Source of the DNA: Spirochaetia bacterium
GTDB taxonomy: Bacteria > Spirochaetota > Spirochaetia > SZUA-6 > Bin103
Length of the DNA stretch: 64,000 nt
NCBI GenBank assembly: GCA_965203055.1
Contig: OZ241863.1
Span: 3,264,001 to 3,328,000, forward strand
Direction: 5' to 3'
A program made the translations under genes and the position numbers. Numbering within the stretch: position 1 is the first letter of the stretch; the number at the start of each line of letters is the position of its first letter. The notes below the pieces were generated by a model. It did no database searches. It was not told the origin of the DNA and saw only the letters and a list, made by a program, of their open reading frames with translations. Shown here one piece after another: positions 4,726 through 64,000 of this stretch.

Positions 4726-4777
4726 TGGAGCAAGCAACGCAGGTCAGGAGACGTACTTCCAATTTGTTGGTACCGGT

Positions 4778-5010
4778 CCCGCCCTCGAAGCCGCCGCTGG
4801 AAAGGCGCACTACGAGTATCGCGCCGCGCTCATGGTGAACAACAACGAGGGGACCAAGATATACAACCGCTTCCACGACCTCTACGAGACCGACCCGCGC
4901 ATCATCGAACTGCGCGAGCTGCACTCCGCCATGGACCGCGCCGGAGTCCGCAACGAAGTGCCCGCCTGCTTGCCCTCAACGCCACCCGCGCCGCCGCCGA
5001 AGCCGGCCCT
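4778..5010 (+). pseudogene. Relic of the 3' end of a type IIG (MmeI/Eco57I-like) R-M gene
   Basis: Translates to PALEAAAGKAHYEYRAALMVNNNEG-TKIYNRFHD...IIELRELHSAMDRA, then in a shifted frame ARLLALNATRAAAE; resembles C-termini of this family as I recall them. Confidence 0.65.
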
Positions 5011-5141
5011 TCGGTACCCGGCAGATCGCGCCCTGTCGACGCCGGTGACATTCTCGGCAGTAGCATCTGACGGAACGTCCAGCCGCTTCGAAATGCGTCG
5101 CCGAGTCACGCCCGCAGGTGGCATCTTCCGGGCCGAAGAAC

Positions 5142-5170
5142 TTGACTCAAATAGTTTCCATGATTATACT
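5142..5170 (+). promoter_or_regulatory. Sigma70-like promoter of HNH copy 1, probably giving a leaderless mRNA
   Basis: TTGACT (5142-5147)-17 bp-TATACT (5165-5170); ATG 6 nt downstream; conserved in copy 2. Confidence 0.7.
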
Positions 5171-5176
5171 TATATC

Positions 5177-6526
5177 ATGAACAAACATGCTTCCGACGGG
5201 GCCGTCACCACTACCGTTTCCGCCCTCTCAGACGACCGCCTGCTGGAGCGGACCAAGGAACTTTCCGGCATCGAACACCATCTCGAAGTGGTCGTCATCG
5301 ACCACCTGCGCGAGATTCATAAGCGCCGCCTGTATCTGCGGCGCGGGTTCTCGAGTCTGTTCGATTACGCGGTGCGCGAACTGGGTTACAGCGACGCCGC
5401 GGCGTGGCGGCGCATCAAGGCGATGCGGCTCTGCGCTGACGTCGAGGGCGCGCGGGAGCGCCTGCAGAATGGCACGATGACGCTGAACGCGGCCGCGCAG
5501 TTGCAGCATGCGTTCGACCGGCAGGAACGCAAGAAGGAACGCGCGGCGCGTAGCGCGCCGGGCGGGGCCGGGTGCGGGGCAGCCGCTCAGTCGCAGGAGG
5601 GCTCGGCGCCGGCGCGGCCGGCGGAGCGGAAGCCGGTGCCGGTGCTGGACTCGGAAGCGCGGCGGGAGTTGGTGGAGCAGGCGTCGGGCAAGAGCAGCCG
5701 GGAGGTGATGCAGTTGCTGGCCGAGGTGGACCCGGAGCTGGCGGCGCCGGCGGATCGGGTGCGGCCCCTGGGCGGCGGGCGCTGGGAACTCAAGACGGTG
5801 ATCGACGATGAGTGCCGGCGGGGCTTGGAGCGGCTCCAGGGCCTCCTGTCCCACGTTGACCCGCACCTGACGATGGGGCAGCTCATGGGGCGGCTGGTGC
5901 GGGAAGGGCTCGACCGCCACGACCCGGCCCGGCCGCCGCGCGGGCGGCGCGCCGCGCCGGCCAAAGGCGCCGAGCAAACTTCGGCGGCGAAGACGCAGGC
6001 GGCCGCAGCTCGCGGCGCTGCCTCGGCAGCGAAGCAGGAGACCAGCGCGGACAGCGCGGCTCCTTCGGCGGCGAAGGTATCGGCTCAGGCGCCGGCGCAG
6101 CCGGGAGGCCAAGCCGCTGACCGCCCGGACACTTCGGCAGCGAAGCCGGCGACCGACGCCACTTCGGCGCCGAAGACGCGGCGCCTCGGCCGGCCGGCTG
6201 CGGCGTGCGCGCAGCCGGCGGCGCCGCCGCGGACCCAGACTTCGGCAGCGAAGACGGGCGTGACCGGCCGCGCCATCCCGGCGGCGGTCAAGCGCGAGGT
6301 GTGGCGGCGCGACCGGGGCCGCTGCCGCTACGTGGACCGCATCAGCGGGCGCCGCTGCGGCTCGCAACACCTGCTGCAGATCGATCACGTGGTGCCGTAT
6401 GCCTGCGGCGGCGGCGCCGAGCCGAACAATCTCCGCCTGCTGTGCGCCGCCCATCATCGCTACCGCCACATCGACGCCGGATTCGGCCGCCCCGGCGAGG
6501 ATCGTCAGGCGCCGGTAGACCGGTGA
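5177..6526 (+). CDS. HNH endonuclease with DUF222-like N-terminal region and Ala/Pro-rich linker
   Basis: RAIPAAVKREVWRRDRGRCRY...LQIDHVVP...GG...NNLRLLCAAHH; N-terminal RRLYLRRGFSSLFDYAVRELGYS. Confidence 0.85.
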   Translation: MNKHASDGAVTTTVSALSDDRLLERTKELSGIEHHLEVVVIDHLREIHKRRLYLRRGFSSLFDYAVRELGYSDAAAWRRIKAMRLCADVEGARERLQNGTMTLNAAAQLQHAFDRQERKKERAARSAPGGAGCGAAAQSQEGSAPARPAERKPVPVLDSEARRELVEQASGKSSREVMQLLAEVDPELAAPADRVRPLGGGRWELKTVIDDECRRGLERLQGLLSHVDPHLTMGQLMGRLVREGLDRHDPARPPRGRRAAPAKGAEQTSAAKTQAAAARGAASAAKQETSADSAAPSAAKVSAQAPAQPGGQAADRPDTSAAKPATDATSAPKTRRLGRPAAACAQPAAPPRTQTSAAKTGVTGRAIPAAVKREVWRRDRGRCRYVDRISGRRCGSQHLLQIDHVVPYACGGGAEPNNLRLLCAAHHRYRHIDAGFGRPGEDRQAPVDR

Positions 6527-6672
6527 TCAAGATCGCCGAGAAACGTCATCTTACACTGGGACTGGGACTGGACTTGGGCTTGGCCGCCAAGCGGCCTGTC
6601 GCTTACCTACATTTTGAAGTGCGCCCAGGTCGGGTGTGCGGCAGGCGTGCGGCTTGGTTTACATTACCCGGC

Positions 6673-59793: not shown

Positions 59794-60861
59794 CTACGGC
59801 GCCTGCGCCCGGGGGCTGAGGGCAGGCACGCCGAGGCGGCCGGCGAGATCGTCGAGCTGGGACACCGTTCCCTGGTCGAGCGGCACCCCGCCGCGGCTCC
59901 GGGCCTCGAGGGTGCGCAGCTCCGGTTCGCCGGGCAGGAGGATTTCATCGACCCCCGGCTTGCGGGCCGACGACTTGAGCAATGCGATGTACTCCTCGTG
60001 CAGCTCCTCCATCGCGGCGCGCCCGACCAGGGCGTCGGGGTCGGCCGCCCACAGGGTGAAGTTGTTGGAGAACTCGCCGCTGCCGCGGGCGCCGCCGGCG
60101 CGCCCGCCGGCCAGCATGGCGCCGACCAGATCGACGATCACCGACATGCCGTACCCCTTGTAGCCCATGTCGCCGCCCAGGGGCAGCATGGAGCCGCCGT
60201 CGTACAGGTCCTCGGGGCGGGTGGAGGGGCGGCCCTCGCGGTCGAGGATCTGGCCGGGGGGCAGTTCCTTGCCGGCGAAGCGCGCTACCCGCACCTTGCC
60301 CTCGGCCGTGACGCTGGTAGTGCAGTCGAGCACGATCGGGCCGCCGTAGGTGGGCACCGCGACGGCGATGGGATTGGTGGACAGCAGCGGCGTGGTGCCG
60401 CCCCAGGGGGCCACGATGCCGGCGCCGCGGCCGCTGCAGAACACCTGCCCCACCAGTCCCGCGGCCGCCATCCTCCGGGCGTAGAACCCGGCCCTGCCGA
60501 TGTGGTTGGCATTGCGCACGCCGACCACCGCGACGCCGCCGGCGCGCGCCTTGAAGGTCGCCAAGCCGGTGGCCTCCAGTCCGGCCACCTGGCCGAACAC
60601 TCCCGGCGCGTCGAGCAGCGCCGTGGTCGGGGTGTCGCGCACCTTGCGCGGCGTTGCCTTGGGGTCGATGCTCCCCTGCTCGATGGCGCCCACGTACTGC
60701 AGCAGGCGATGCACGCCGTGGGAATCGTGGCCCAGGAGGTTGGAGTCGGCCAAGTGGTCGGCTACCGCACTGCCGTGGCTCGGCGGCGCTCCCGCGGCTG
60801 CCAGCACCGCGAGGGCGAACTCATGCAGAGTGTCATAGGTAAATCGCACTTCTTCAGCCAT
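59794..60861 (-). CDS. Ldh_2 family oxidoreductase (malate/L-lactate/L-sulfolactate dehydrogenase type)
   Basis: GHDSHG, NANHIG, TNPIA, LPLGG...YKGYG, LLPGE. Confidence 0.9.
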   Translation of the reverse strand: MAEEVRFTYDTLHEFALAVLAAAGAPPSHGSAVADHLADSNLLGHDSHGVHRLLQYVGAIEQGSIDPKATPRKVRDTPTTALLDAPGVFGQVAGLEATGLATFKARAGGVAVVGVRNANHIGRAGFYARRMAAAGLVGQVFCSGRGAGIVAPWGGTTPLLSTNPIAVAVPTYGGPIVLDCTTSVTAEGKVRVARFAGKELPPGQILDREGRPSTRPEDLYDGGSMLPLGGDMGYKGYGMSVIVDLVGAMLAGGRAGGARGSGEFSNNFTLWAADPDALVGRAAMEELHEEYIALLKSSARKPGVDEILLPGEPELRTLEARSRGGVPLDQGTVSQLDDLAGRLGVPALSPRAQAP

Positions 60862-61136
60862 ATCAGATGTTCCAGCCCGGATGATAGCACGAATGCCGCC
60901 TGTGGGGCGCGGGCCGGCCGCCGGGGGGCGCACTTCCAATTTGTTGGTACCGGTCCCGCCCTCGAAGCCGCCGGAAAGGCGTAACGAGATCGACGAGGCC
61001 GCCTGGGGCCGTAAGAAGAAACCCTGCCGCCCGACGCCGGCGACATTCTCGGCGGTAGCATCTGACGGAACGTCCAGCCGCTTGGAAATGCGCCGCCGAG
61101 TCACGCCAGCAAGTGGCATCTTCCGGGCCGAAGAAC

Positions 61137-61165
61137 TTGACTCAAGTAGTTTCCATGATTATACT
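61137..61165 (+). promoter_or_regulatory. Sigma70-like promoter of HNH copy 2
   Basis: TTGACT-17 bp-TATACT, ATG at 61172. Confidence 0.7.
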
Positions 61166-61171
61166 TATGTC

Positions 61172-62529
61172 ATGTACAATCATGCTTCCGACGAGGCCGT
61201 CACCACTACCGTATCCGCCCTCTCAGACGACCGCCTGCTGGCGCGGACCAAGGAACTTTCCGGCATCGAACACCATCTCGAAGTGGTCGTGATCGACCAC
61301 CTGCGGGAGATTCAGAAGCGCCGCCTGTATCTGCGCCGCGGGTTCTCGAGTCTGTTCGATTACGCGGTACGCGAGCTGGGTTACAGCGACGCCGCGGCGT
61401 GGCGGCGCATCAAGGCGATGCGGCTCTGCGCGGACGTCGATGGCGTGCGGGAGCGCCTGCAGAATGGCACGATGACGCTGAACGCGGCCGCGCAGTTGCA
61501 GAACGCCTTCGACCGGCAGGAGCGCAAGAAGGAACGGGCGGCGCGTAGCGCGCCGGGCGGGACCGGGTTCGGGGCTGCCGCTCAGTCGCAGGAGGGCTCG
61601 GCGCCGCCGCGGCCGGCGGAGCGGAAGCCGGCGCCGACGCCGGTGCTGGACCCGGAGGCGCGGCGGGAGCTGGTGGAGCAGGCGTCCGGCAAGAGCAGCC
61701 GGGAGGTGATGCAGTTGCTGGCCGAGGTGGACCCCGAACTGGCGGCGCCGGCGGAGCGGGTGCGGCCGCTGGGCGGCGGTCGCTGGGAGCTCAAGGCGGT
61801 GATCGACGATGAGTGCCGGCGCGGCTTGGAGCGGCTCAAGGGCCTCCTGTCGCACGTCGATCCGCACCTGACGTTGGGCAGCTCATGGGGCGGCTGGTGC
61901 GGGAAGGGCTCGACCGCCACGATCCGGCCCGGCCGCCGCGCGGGCGGCGCGCCGCGCCAGCCAAAGGCGCCGAGCAAACTTCGGCGCCGAAGACGCAGGC
62001 GGCCTCGGCTCGCGGCGCTGCCCCGGCAGCGAAGCAGGAGGCCGGCGCGGACAACGCCGCTCCTTCGGCGGCGAAGGTATCGGCTCAGGCGGCGGCGCAG
62101 CCGGGAGACGAAGCCGCTGACCGCTCGGACACTTCGGCAGCGAAGACGGCGACCGACACCACTTCGGCGGCGAAGACGCGGCGCCTCGGCCGGCAGGCTG
62201 CGGCGTGCGCGCAGCCGGCTGCGCCGCCGCGGACCCGGACTTCGGCAGCGAAGCCGGGCGGCGTGACCGGCCGCGCCATCCCGGCGGCGGTCAAGCGCGA
62301 GGTCTGGCGGCGCGACCGCGGCCGCTGCCGCTACGTGGACCGCACCAGCGGGCGCCGCTACGGCTCGCAACACCTGCTGCAGATCGATCACGTCGTGCCG
62401 TATGCCTGCGGCGGCGCCGCCGAGCCGAACAATCTCCGCCTGCTGTGCGCCGCCCATCACCGCTACCGCCACCTCGGCGCCGGATTCGGCCGCCCCGGCG
62501 AGGATCGGCAGGCGCCGGTAGACCGGTGA
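61172..62529 (+). pseudogene. HNH endonuclease copy 2, 1-nt deletion near 61875
   Basis: Highly similar to 5177-6526; ACGTTGGGCAG versus ACGATGGGGCAG shifts the frame; RRCG changed to RRYG. Confidence 0.8.
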
Positions 62530-62686
62530 TTCAAGATCGCCGAGAAACGTCATTTACACTGGGACTGAGCTTGGCCGCCAAGTGGCATGACCTACAACAC
62601 TTACCTACATTTTGGAATGCGCCCGCCGCCGGGCACCCGGCGGGGAGGGCTTGAGCCGGGCGGCGGTACGGTGTTTCATTCCTCAC

Positions 62687-64000
62687 GTGACTGATGCAGG
62701 CAGCGTACGGCAGCGGGCGGGCGCCGCGTTCGACTCGTGGGAGGCGATTGCGGCCGACGACGCGGCCATACGGGATGCTCTGAGGCACGCCAACGTCCCC
62801 GCGCTGCTGGCGGCGTTGGCCCATCTCACCGGCGACCTCGGGCTGCTCCGAGGGGAGGTTCGACCGCGCGTGGTCTGGGGCGACGCGCAGATGGGGCTCA
62901 GCCGGGCGCAGCAGGAGCAGGTGCGGACCCGCGCCCTGGAAATCATCGCCGCCTACCGCGACGGCGGGTTGCGCCCGGCGCCGCCGCCGACCCGCGAACA
63001 GGTGCATGAGATGGCCAGTTTCCTCGTCGGCCGGTCGCTCGGGGAGGACTACGTCGAGTTCCTGGTGACCGAACTCGGGCTGGCCGGCCACGACCCGGGC
63101 GCCGCCGGCTTCCTCCGCGAGGTGCCGGCGGAGCGGCGCACCGGCTTCCACGTGGCGGTGATCGGCGCCGGTATGTCGGGAATCCTGGCGGCGCATCGCC
63201 TGCAGCAGGCGGGCATCCCCTATACCGTGCTCGAGAAGAACGCCGACGTGGGCGGCACCTGGCTGGAGAACACCTACCCCGGCTGCCGCGTCGACACCCC
63301 CAATCACTCCTATTCCTACTCGTTCGCACCCAAGGATTGGCCGCAGTTCTTTTCCTCCCAGCCGGTACTGCTGGAGTACTTTCGAGAGTGCGCCGCCCGG
63401 TTCGGCATTCGCGACCGGATCCGCTTCGCCACCGAAGTCGAGCGCCTCGCGTTCGACGAGCGGAGCCAGACCTGGACGCTCCATACCCGGAGCGCCGGCG
63501 GGGAGCTGCGCCCGCCGCTCCGCGCCAACGCCGTGATCAGCGCCGTCGGCCAACTCAATCGCCCGCGGCTGCCGCAGATCGCCGGCCGGGATACGTTTCG
63601 CGGCGCCGCGTTTCATACCGCGCGCTGGAATCAGGCGGTTGATCTGACCGGCAAGCGGGTCGCGGTAATCGGTACCGGCGCGTCGGCCTTTCAGGCGGTG
63701 CCGGCAATCGCCTCCTCGGTCGCGGAGCTGTTTCTGTTTCAACGTACGCCGCCGTGGGTCAATCCGCGCCCCGACTACCACCAGGAGGTGCCCGCCGGCA
63801 AGCACTGGCTGCTGCGCTGCGTCCCCCACTACGCGCAGTGGTTTCGGCTGCTGCAGTTCTGGCTCACCGCCGAGGGCGCGCTGGCGTACGTGTACCGGGA
63901 CGAGCAGTGGGACGAAGCGGGCAGCATCGGCGCCGCCAACCGCAAGCTGCGCCGCCTGCTGGTCAGGCATGCCAAGGAGTCACTGGGAGATGATCCGGAA
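62687..64000 (+). CDS. Baeyer-Villiger-type flavin monooxygenase (HAPMO-like), runs off the window
   Basis: Manual translation: VIGAGMSG, GGTWLENTYPG, FRGAAFHTARW (FxGxxxHxxxW), VIGTGASA. Confidence 0.88.
   Translation, partial: MTDAGSVRQRAGAAFDSWEAIAADDAAIRDALRHANVPALLAALAHLTGDLGLLRGEVRPRVVWGDAQMGLSRAQQEQVRTRALEIIAAYRDGGLRPAPPPTREQVHEMASFLVGRSLGEDYVEFLVTELGLAGHDPGAAGFLREVPAERRTGFHVAVIGAGMSGILAAHRLQQAGIPYTVLEKNADVGGTWLENTYPGCRVDTPNHSYSYSFAPKDWPQFFSSQPVLLEYFRECAARFGIRDRIRFATEVERLAFDERSQTWTLHTRSAGGELRPPLRANAVISAVGQLNRPRLPQIAGRDTFRGAAFHTARWNQAVDLTGKRVAVIGTGASAFQAVPAIASSVAELFLFQRTPPWVNPRPDYHQEVPAGKHWLLRCVPHYAQWFRLLQFWLTAEGALAYVYRDEQWDEAGSIGAANRKLRRLLVRHAKESLGDDPE

Follow-up and report, generated by a model that had tools for sequence, protein, structure and literature searches.

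How does a nuclease gene in an element that encodes no transposase come to stand twice in one stretch of DNA, each time between what look like the ends of a transposon? The question is raised by 64,000 nucleotides from a Spirochaetia bacterium (contig OZ241863.1, positions 3,264,001 to 3,328,000), here called the window; plain positions refer to this whole stretch, and those prefixed C1 to the genome contig, 4,557,819 bp in one contig. The window holds two homologous blocks, copy 1 (4749-6626) and copy 2 (60926-62624, read directly), with a mean column identity of 89% when aligned, and the only long coding frame in these elements of 1.7-1.9 kb is a gene for an HNH endonuclease. The initial annotation had read the blocks either as a non-autonomous element moved in trans or as a new class of element in which the HNH protein aids spread or retention. 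The first view is upheld by the number of copies, by empty sites in related genomes, by an insertion sequence (IS) with the same ends and by an oriented choice of target that the two share, and we consider it very probable that the element is a mobile insertion cassette, that is, a non-autonomous derivative of the ISKra4 family that carries the HNH gene as cargo.

The ends of the two blocks carry the first part of the argument. Copy 2 opens with the left terminal inverted repeat GGGCGCACTTCCAATTTGTTGGTA (60926..60949, plus strand) and closes with the right repeat TACCTACATTTTGGAATGCGCCC (62602..62624, minus strand), and the nine bases on either side, GCCGCCGGG at 60917..60925 and again at 62625..62633, are identical (9/9), as expected of a target-site duplication. 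In copy 1 the first six bases of the left terminal repeat, AGACGTACTTCCAATTTGTTGGTA (4749..4772, plus strand), are mutated and read AGACGT for GGGCGC; its right repeat is TACCTACATTTTGAAGTGCGCCC (6604..6626, minus strand), and the duplication-like flanks, AGGTCAGG at 4741..4748 and AGGTCGGG at 6627..6634, agree in 7/8 positions. Blocks, ends and both pairs of flanks, perfect in copy 2 and imperfect in copy 1, lie where they had originally been placed.

Searching the genome with the ends alone (blastn-short), we found a 1523-bp IS in eight full copies, 98.2-100% identical, and one deleted copy. Its ends, GGGCGCACTTCCAATTTGTAGGTAGG / ..CTACCTACGTTTTGGAAGTGCGCCC, match those of the HNH element over 24 nt, the left repeat of copy 2 included, and on the right the likeness extends to about 34 nt in most copies and takes in the transposase stop codon. 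Duplications of 8-9 bp surround 9/9 IS copies, one with a mismatch (by eye). The single IS gene, of 467 aa, passes the NCBIfam model for ISKra4 transposases (214.6 bits, cut-off 205) and also matches Pfam UPF0236, so that the autonomous element with GGGCGC ends that was to be sought in this genome is indeed present. Since an ISKra4-type transposase is encoded in the partner and the HNH element has none of its own, we regard the HNH element as a derivative of an ISKra4 IS and not as a member IS.

Cassette and IS agree not only in their ends but also in where they insert. On the right flank, TTGAC lies at a distance of 14-16 nt in 7/34 HNH elements (expected 0.058, P 3e-13) and in 4/9 IS copies (expected 0.015, P 2e-9), and with a relaxed -35 box these figures rise to 13/34 and 6/9; on the left flank the motif occurs at this distance in none of 25 HNH elements (expected 0.043) and in none of nine IS copies (expected 0.015). 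This oriented promoter targeting is common to both, and hence the cassette bears the behavioural signature of the IS transposase in addition to its ends. Passages of Guerillot et al. 2014 (PMC3942029) give the ISKra4 group (p-MULT 4, prokaryotic Mutator-like) inverted repeats of 18-39 bp ending in C, direct repeats of 8-9 bp and, in more than 20% of insertions, a distance of 13-17 bp between a sigma-A promoter and the junction of inverted repeat and genome, and mention that extra genes, of unknown function, occur in four ISKra4 elements. The element studied here shows these traits (length of the inverted repeat, terminal C, direct repeat of 8-9 bp, promoter distance), and the partner IS passes the family model, but unlike the group elements treated in those passages the cassette lacks a transposase and carries HNH cargo.

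The element had been described as present twice, which is correct inside the window; genome-wide, blastn detects 67 loci, of which 33 reach 1.4 kb or more, and together the loci total 73,540 bp or 1.61% of the genome. A left end is found at 25 of the 67 loci, a right end at 34 and both at 15; the copy at C1:4273211, for example, has no left end. Among the two-ended loci, the flanks match at 7/9 bases or better in 4/15, as compared to 0.5% of 210 mismatched control pairs; two of these four match 9/9 (copy 2 and C1:968884) and two match 7/9, and further duplications were seen by eye at C1:3383159, C1:4150722 and C1:1165455. No relationship is seen between the flanks of different copies. Boundaries and 9-bp duplications thus recur in other copies across the genome, which was among the checks first proposed, and because the ends recur genome-wide and the flank matches exceed the controls, the pattern seen in two copies is beyond chance.

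Empty sites, another of the proposed checks, are also found. The genes that flank copy 2 lie 1832 bp apart here versus about 95-130 bp in seven genomes of the same genus (G001, G003, G004, G005, G007, G008 and G009), where the orthologous site is empty. The copy-2 duplication could not be aligned with these empty sites, the intergenic DNA being too diverged. In metagenomes, contigs with copy-2 flanks enter the element or end at its ends, and four runs, labelled as sponge and marine, contain the insertion; an exact search of metagenome contigs for the 31 nt to the left of copy 2 gave no match. A further genome, G010, has about 1.2 kb of unrelated DNA at the orthologous site (L015:2617-3823), which is thus neither empty nor occupied by the cassette.

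A longer version of the element points to its origin. In two long forms (C1:1405390 and C1:2838909) the left end lies about 85 bp before the start of a methylase gene of about 3.9 kb, which is followed by the HNH gene. Six short copies that we compared share one junction, in which the 24-nt end is joined to the methylase codons ..PALEAAG, and this common junction indicates a single deletion origin of the short form. The methylase matches PADLOC DrmMI at full length (1306.5 bits) and Pfam Eco57I, MmeI_Mtase and MmeI_TRD. The genome has four matches to DUF1998/MZB, each more than 20 kb from every methylase copy; DISARM class 1, where a DrmMI-type methylase has drmA/drmB (DUF1998) genes as neighbours, is ruled out for the long-form methylase, as no DUF1998 gene lies within 20 kb, and the lack of such neighbours marks the enzyme as a solitary DrmMI-like/type IIG methylase.

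These observations suggest the following course of events. The cassette has kept the 24-nt terminal inverted repeats of the IS, and about 34 nt on the right, and has no transposase; its HNH gene, whose product would have a dimeric DNA-binding N-terminal half, would be expressed from its own near-consensus promoter. The ISKra4-type DDE transposase supplied by full-length IS copies would move the cassette in trans by acting on these ends, for which the common promoter targeting is indirect support, and would make 9-bp duplications and direct the right end to a place 14-16 bp upstream of a sigma-70-type -35 box. The 1.7-kb form would have arisen once, through a deletion of about 3.7 kb in a longer cassette composed of left end, methylase, HNH gene and right end, and would then have out-multiplied both its parent and the IS. 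In this scheme the HNH protein is most likely a defence-type nuclease carried as cargo, and less likely a factor that helps the cassette spread or persist.

The traces of this history can be followed along both copies in the window. Next to the left repeat, copy 2 retains a decayed 3' remnant of the DrmMI-like/type IIG methylase (60950..61035, plus strand), recognized by blastn to the 3' ends of the full-length methylases (query 85-131, 91-98%), with pieces that read ..PALEAAGKA and EIDEAAWGRKKKP. The remnant in copy 1 is longer (4773..5010, plus strand) and reads ..PALEAAAGKAHYEYRAALMVNNNEGTKIYNRFHDLYETDPRIIELRELHSAMDRA..; here the full methylase gene matches C1:3268777-3268943 (window 4777-4943) with 85.9% identity over 170 nt (blastn). 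Each window copy has one promoter of the form TTGACT-17-TATACT, at 61137..61165 in copy 2 (plus strand; 10/12 matches, 1 found vs 0.2 expected per region) and at 5142..5170 in copy 1 (plus strand), and this promoter is conserved in relatives. Because the ATG of the HNH gene begins only 6 nt past the -10 box (61160-61174; 5165-5179), the transcript is probably leaderless, without a ribosome-binding site. In copy 1 the gene is intact (5177..6526, plus strand, 449 aa). In copy 2 it is frameshifted (61172..62529, plus strand; assigned from the open reading frames, from the alignment with copy 1 and from Pfam HNH, PF01844, E 1.6e-5): a 1-nt deletion near 61870, as placed by that alignment, splits it into an N-terminal frame starting at 61172 and a C-terminal HNH frame at 61813-62529. 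The HNH gene, which had been taken for the only gene, is the sole long frame, but in copy 2 this frame is broken and a decayed piece of methylase stands beside it.

Just upstream of the -35 box of copy 2 lies a CTTC-N6-GAAG palindrome (61120..61134), a candidate operator that is related to a motif within the gene; the promoter-proximal sequence reads CTTCCGGGCCGAAG. In another copy of the cassette (C1:623616-626150), the palindrome is the 9-bp target of an IS insertion: a copy of the partner IS (at C1:623721) sits inside this cassette; it is flanked by a 9-bp duplication and lies exactly 16 nt upstream of the -35 box that serves the HNH gene. The arrangement illustrates a way in which this IS family could acquire the gene.

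Indeed, the pairing of this HNH family with ISKra4-type ends is not confined to one IS. The family is multi-copy in 12/12 other genomes of the same taxonomic family (G001-G012). In G010 an HNH gene lies between different ends, GGGTGCGAACGCCGAAAGCGGTATTGA..., with the 9-bp duplication CGCGGCGGG. A second ISKra4-type IS in that genome (type B) has the same ends over 29 nt, and its transposase shares 35% identity with that of the present IS. In G003 it is a third IS (type C, transposase 54% identical) whose ends enclose the HNH gene, with the 9-bp duplication ACTGTAGCA, and here the gene is in the opposite orientation and accompanied by a transposase remnant. The transposases of types A (here), B and C are 35-65% identical. 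Type-B and type-C ends have two and zero exact matches, respectively, in the present genome, which is chance level, and such ends were dismissed here. In G010 a 25-nt unit, GCCGTCTCGGCGGGGCCCTACCGTA, is repeated in tandem about six times (L044:120-270) upstream of a type-B IS. The present genome also contains an HNH paralogue without IS ends (C1:1319853-1321090, 75% nucleotide identity), with a homologous promoter, between the end of an hsdS-like gene and an AIPR-like abortive-infection gene, in what may be the original defence-island setting of the cargo.

What does the cargo encode? The protein matches Pfam HNH (25.6 bits, cut-off 21.4), H404, N418, C383, C394, C423 and H426 hardly vary among 32 homologues, in keeping with the beta-beta-alpha-metal motif of HNH nucleases and its conserved His/Asn and zinc ligands, and the family comprises 16,023 representative clusters at E <= 0.001. 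It had been called a DUF222-like HNH protein with its own promoter; promoter and HNH domain are borne out, but Pfam DUF222 (PF02720) gives no match at E <= 10. Five of the 32 homologues match DUF222 weakly (best E 2.1e-4), and a remote kinship is possible. Scans of this frame alone against Pfam, NCBIfam, PHROGs and PADLOC returned nothing but HNH; PADLOC gave one marginal match (E 0.006), and no known defence system was assigned. An IscB/TnpB-type nuclease was ruled out, as the NCBIfam IscB model scores 21.1 bits against a cut-off of 175 and covers the HNH part only. In structural models (predicted local distance difference test, pLDDT, 77 for the whole protein and 90 for residues 1-250), a helical domain is followed by a strand-helix-helix unit, and a disordered linker leads on to the HNH domain. 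Aligned with VIA-align, where all matches are middling (Z < 8), the HNH part resembles the HNH of phage GVE2, McrA and the IscB HNH (Z 6-7.5), the GVE2 match having Z 7.5 and a root-mean-square deviation (rmsd) of 6.5 A over 80 aa, and the IscB matches Z 7.1 and 6.4 with an rmsd of 2.5 A over 59 and 58 aa, respectively. Residues 32-190 resemble the DNA-binding domains of KorB/ParB (Z 5.6-6.2), and residues 200-250 resemble ribbon-helix-helix proteins (Z 5-6.2, rmsd 1.1-2.0 A over 44-49 aa); neither the whole protein nor its N-terminal half had a Foldseek match in PDB at E <= 0.001. The N-terminal half models as a symmetric homodimer with an interaction prediction score from aligned errors (ipSAE) of 0.72, versus 0.00 for the best of three controls; at least 89% of contacts recur between runs, with a partner pLDDT of 77 or more, and the mark used is reached by 20/30 solved homodimers and by 1/23 single chains. 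The models support the view that the N-terminal half is a putative dimeric DNA binder, and the protein as a whole is presumably an active, sequence-specific nuclease.

The part of the gene that codes for the linker is unusual in its nucleotide sequence. It carries 5-6 copies of a hairpin/palindrome motif, CTTCGGCNNCGAAG, arrayed five times in copy 2 (61979..62253) and six times in copy 1 (5979..6253), and the in-gene palindrome can be written CTTCGGCGCCGAAG. The form CTTCG-N4-CGAAG occurs 254 times in the genome, and 215 of these occurrences fall within HNH loci. Within the motif, the Thr codon is ACT in 70/71 cases, compared to 4% genome-wide, and the Ser codon is TCG in 86/87, while nucleotide diversity is 0.046 at motif positions versus 0.100 in the rest of the linker. 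A looser form, TTCG-N4-6-CGAA, is present 2-6 times in the HNH gene of every relative examined, even at 54-57% protein identity. From this codon use and diversity, the motifs are evidently constrained at the nucleotide level; that they are candidate binding sites of the dimeric N-terminal half is a guess. Metagenome contigs show many variants in repeat number in the linker region.

Selection on the protein was assessed through omega, the ratio of nonsynonymous to synonymous change (dN/dS), as had been suggested at the outset. A full frame is found in 19/41 loci of at least 900 bp, one of them with an internal deletion, and among 18 intact copies omega is 0.44 overall, 0.18 in residues 1-130, 0.51 in residues 131-250, 1.03 in the linker and 0.33 in the HNH domain. 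Changes private to one copy give values similar to those among the 18 copies, and from this low omega of singletons we at first read selection after insertion, a reading since withdrawn because broken copies show the same omega.

Several results weigh against the cassette interpretation, or at least against a cassette in present motion. Measured against the consensus, omega in the N-terminal and HNH domains is equal, at 0.19, in the 18 intact and in 15 broken copies, so that the constraint is real but cannot be dated to the time after insertion; the frame breaks may be recent. Identity among the 33 long copies is 87-95% (median of all pairs 92.5%) and reaches 92.6-95.0% between nearest neighbours, as opposed to 98-100% for IS copies. 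Because long copies are at most 95% alike, their spread is old and star-like, unlike the recent burst of the IS, which has thus left no visible trace of cassette movement. A clear duplication is missing in 11/15 two-ended copies, which fits their age. No metagenome contig joins the flanks of copy 2 by skipping 60926-62624 (in four runs from four studies; rare alleles would escape contigs). Finally, G011, from another genus, has cassette copies 93-94% identical to those here, and searches with this protein and this IS DNA found no ISKra4 transposase in it; the similarity points to horizontal spread, with the copies in G011 probably stranded.

The most serious alternative gives the nuclease an active part. 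Instead of a passenger, the HNH protein would be a working partner, a dimeric, sequence-specific cutter that raises copy number or prevents loss of the cassette; it might cut at the palindromes or at empty or sister sites, with repair then copying the cassette. We judge this unlikely, yet a good deal of the evidence is in keeping with it. The ends of three ISKra4 lineages enclose the same HNH family, each in another species and in different architectures; matches to the ends fall only in IS copies, HNH loci and long forms, and no cargo-less derivative turned up, although no search aimed at one was made; and the cassette outnumbers the IS, with 33 long copies against nine. Omega is about 0.2 in the N-terminal and HNH domains. 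The motif is confined to HNH loci (215/254), held by codon choice (ACT 70/71) and kept in all relatives examined, and the ribbon-helix-helix-like residues 200-250 and the symmetric homodimer model of the N-terminal half (ipSAE 0.72) count on the same side. However, ISs of this kind target strong promoters, and one copy of the IS already sits 16 nt upstream of an HNH promoter, so that repeated capture can be explained without any benefit from the nuclease; promoter-targeted insertion near the strong HNH promoter, seen once, may by itself make capture likely and let the HNH gene recur as cargo. Furthermore, there are no recent copies, no cleavage site is known and the fold matches are middling (Z < 8), whereas the paralogue without terminal inverted repeats beside hsdS-like and AIPR-like genes, and the long form that pairs the HNH gene with a restriction-type methylase, fit a role in host defence instead. 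A broader proposition treats the HNH protein, together with the palindromes in the gene for it, as a nuclease module; ISKra4-type elements would have recruited it more than once because it drives the copy number or persistence of the cassette, through cuts at specific sites after which repair copies or restores the cassette. In our estimation this is unlikely to the same degree.

Two further explanations do without a transposase. HNH domains are common in homing endonucleases, and the fold matches include phage HNH enzymes such as that of GVE2, so one might take the element for a free-standing homing endonuclease gene, spread by cleavage of a recognition site and by the repair that copies it in, with incidental inverted repeats and duplications; this is contradicted by unrelated flanks that offer no common target, by homology that stops exactly at the ends of a transposase-bearing IS, and by 9-bp duplications and an oriented, promoter-proximal mode of insertion, and it is very improbable. 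The idea that the window blocks are products of segmental duplication or of recombination within a multigene family could draw on the age and divergence of the copies and on the variable repeat numbers in the linker, but it would have to produce sharp inverted-repeat boundaries in dozens of unrelated contexts, perfect 9-bp duplications, orthologous sites that are empty in seven relatives and an insertion signature common to IS and cassette, and we give it hardly any weight.

If the element is a non-autonomous ISKra4-family cassette, as we favour, it is of a known type. Mobile insertion cassettes (MICs) are IS-derived, lack a transposase and carry passenger genes, MIC231 of Bacillus cereus being an example. 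The present element resembles them in its IS-type ends, missing transposase, passenger gene, duplications of the cognate length and matching autonomous IS in the same genome. It differs in its ISKra4 chassis, in having as cargo an HNH nuclease with a DNA-binding half, in an unusually high copy number (33 long copies, 67 loci), in the recurrence of the same cargo on three ISKra4 chassis and in the conserved hairpin motifs of the cargo gene. At 1.7-1.9 kb and with a 449-aa gene it is not a miniature inverted-repeat transposable element, which would be small and non-coding. The initial annotation had allowed that the ends might belong to a catalogued IS with this passenger; the ends are those of a known IS family, but the passenger was not found in the literature searched, which describes neither HNH cargo nor its repeated pairing with ISKra4. 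That literature contains no HNH endonuclease as a passenger gene of an IS, and no link between ISKra4 and HNH, although the supplementary tables of PMC3942029 could list one.

Other systems offer partial parallels. The REP13E12 repeats of Mycobacterium tuberculosis (Gordon et al. 1999, cited in PMC10589994) are likewise multi-copy genes of about 1.4 kb of the DUF222-HNH kind, whose products join a helical N-terminal part to an HNH domain at the C-terminus; in contrast, our protein has no DUF222 match, and its means of spread is visible in IS ends, duplications and a cognate transposase. The long form, with a methylase and a nuclease gene between IS ends, recalls the transposon-like restriction-modification units flanked by inverted repeats that Furuta, Abe and Kobayashi reportedly described, except that the abundant short form has lost the methylase and retains the nuclease only. 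In IS200/IS605 elements, TnpB/IscB nucleases assist retention and spread. There too a nuclease gene resides in a transposon, and the HNH domain here aligns with that of IscB, but a RuvC domain is absent, no guide RNA was seen and the partner transposase is of the DDE and not the HUH type.

The consequences extend beyond this locus. A nuclease gene without mobility of its own would have reached dozens of copies by means of borrowed transposon ends, which offers a concrete and testable route for the spread of multi-copy HNH genes with a helical N-terminal domain. The promoter targeting of the ISKra4 group extends to a derivative without transposase, and 1.6% of the host genome would consist of promoter-proximal insertions, each with an outward-facing strong promoter and a nuclease gene. 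The three ISKra4 chassis and the nucleotide-constrained palindromes invite the question whether the cassette profits from its cargo. If it did, unlikely as we hold that to be, the nuclease module would parallel TnpB/IscB, with a protein instead of an RNA as guide, and could explain the multi-copy DUF222-like HNH genes of many bacteria, including the unexplained REP13E12 repeats.

Some minor observations concern the surroundings of the element and the methylases. Copy 2 occupies the short spacer between two divergent host genes (59794-60862, minus strand, and 62690-64000, plus strand), which by eye resemble a malate/lactate dehydrogenase gene and a flavin monooxygenase gene. In one long form (L046, C1:1396300-1405500) the methylase gene is interrupted by an insert of about 3.3 kb, whose open reading frames look by eye like IS21-type transposase genes. 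The genome also encodes five methylase paralogues of about 1300 aa, all open, at C1:4383968-4387882 (L048:169-4083), C1:980275-984290, C1:1765641-1769429, C1:2067108-2071034 and C1:2594730-2598662. None adjoins DISARM partner genes, and the one at C1:1765641-1769429 lacks the common N-terminus. Their protein identity is 93-99% over most of the length and 54-69% in the target-recognition part, and they look like specificity variants spread by the same cassette system.

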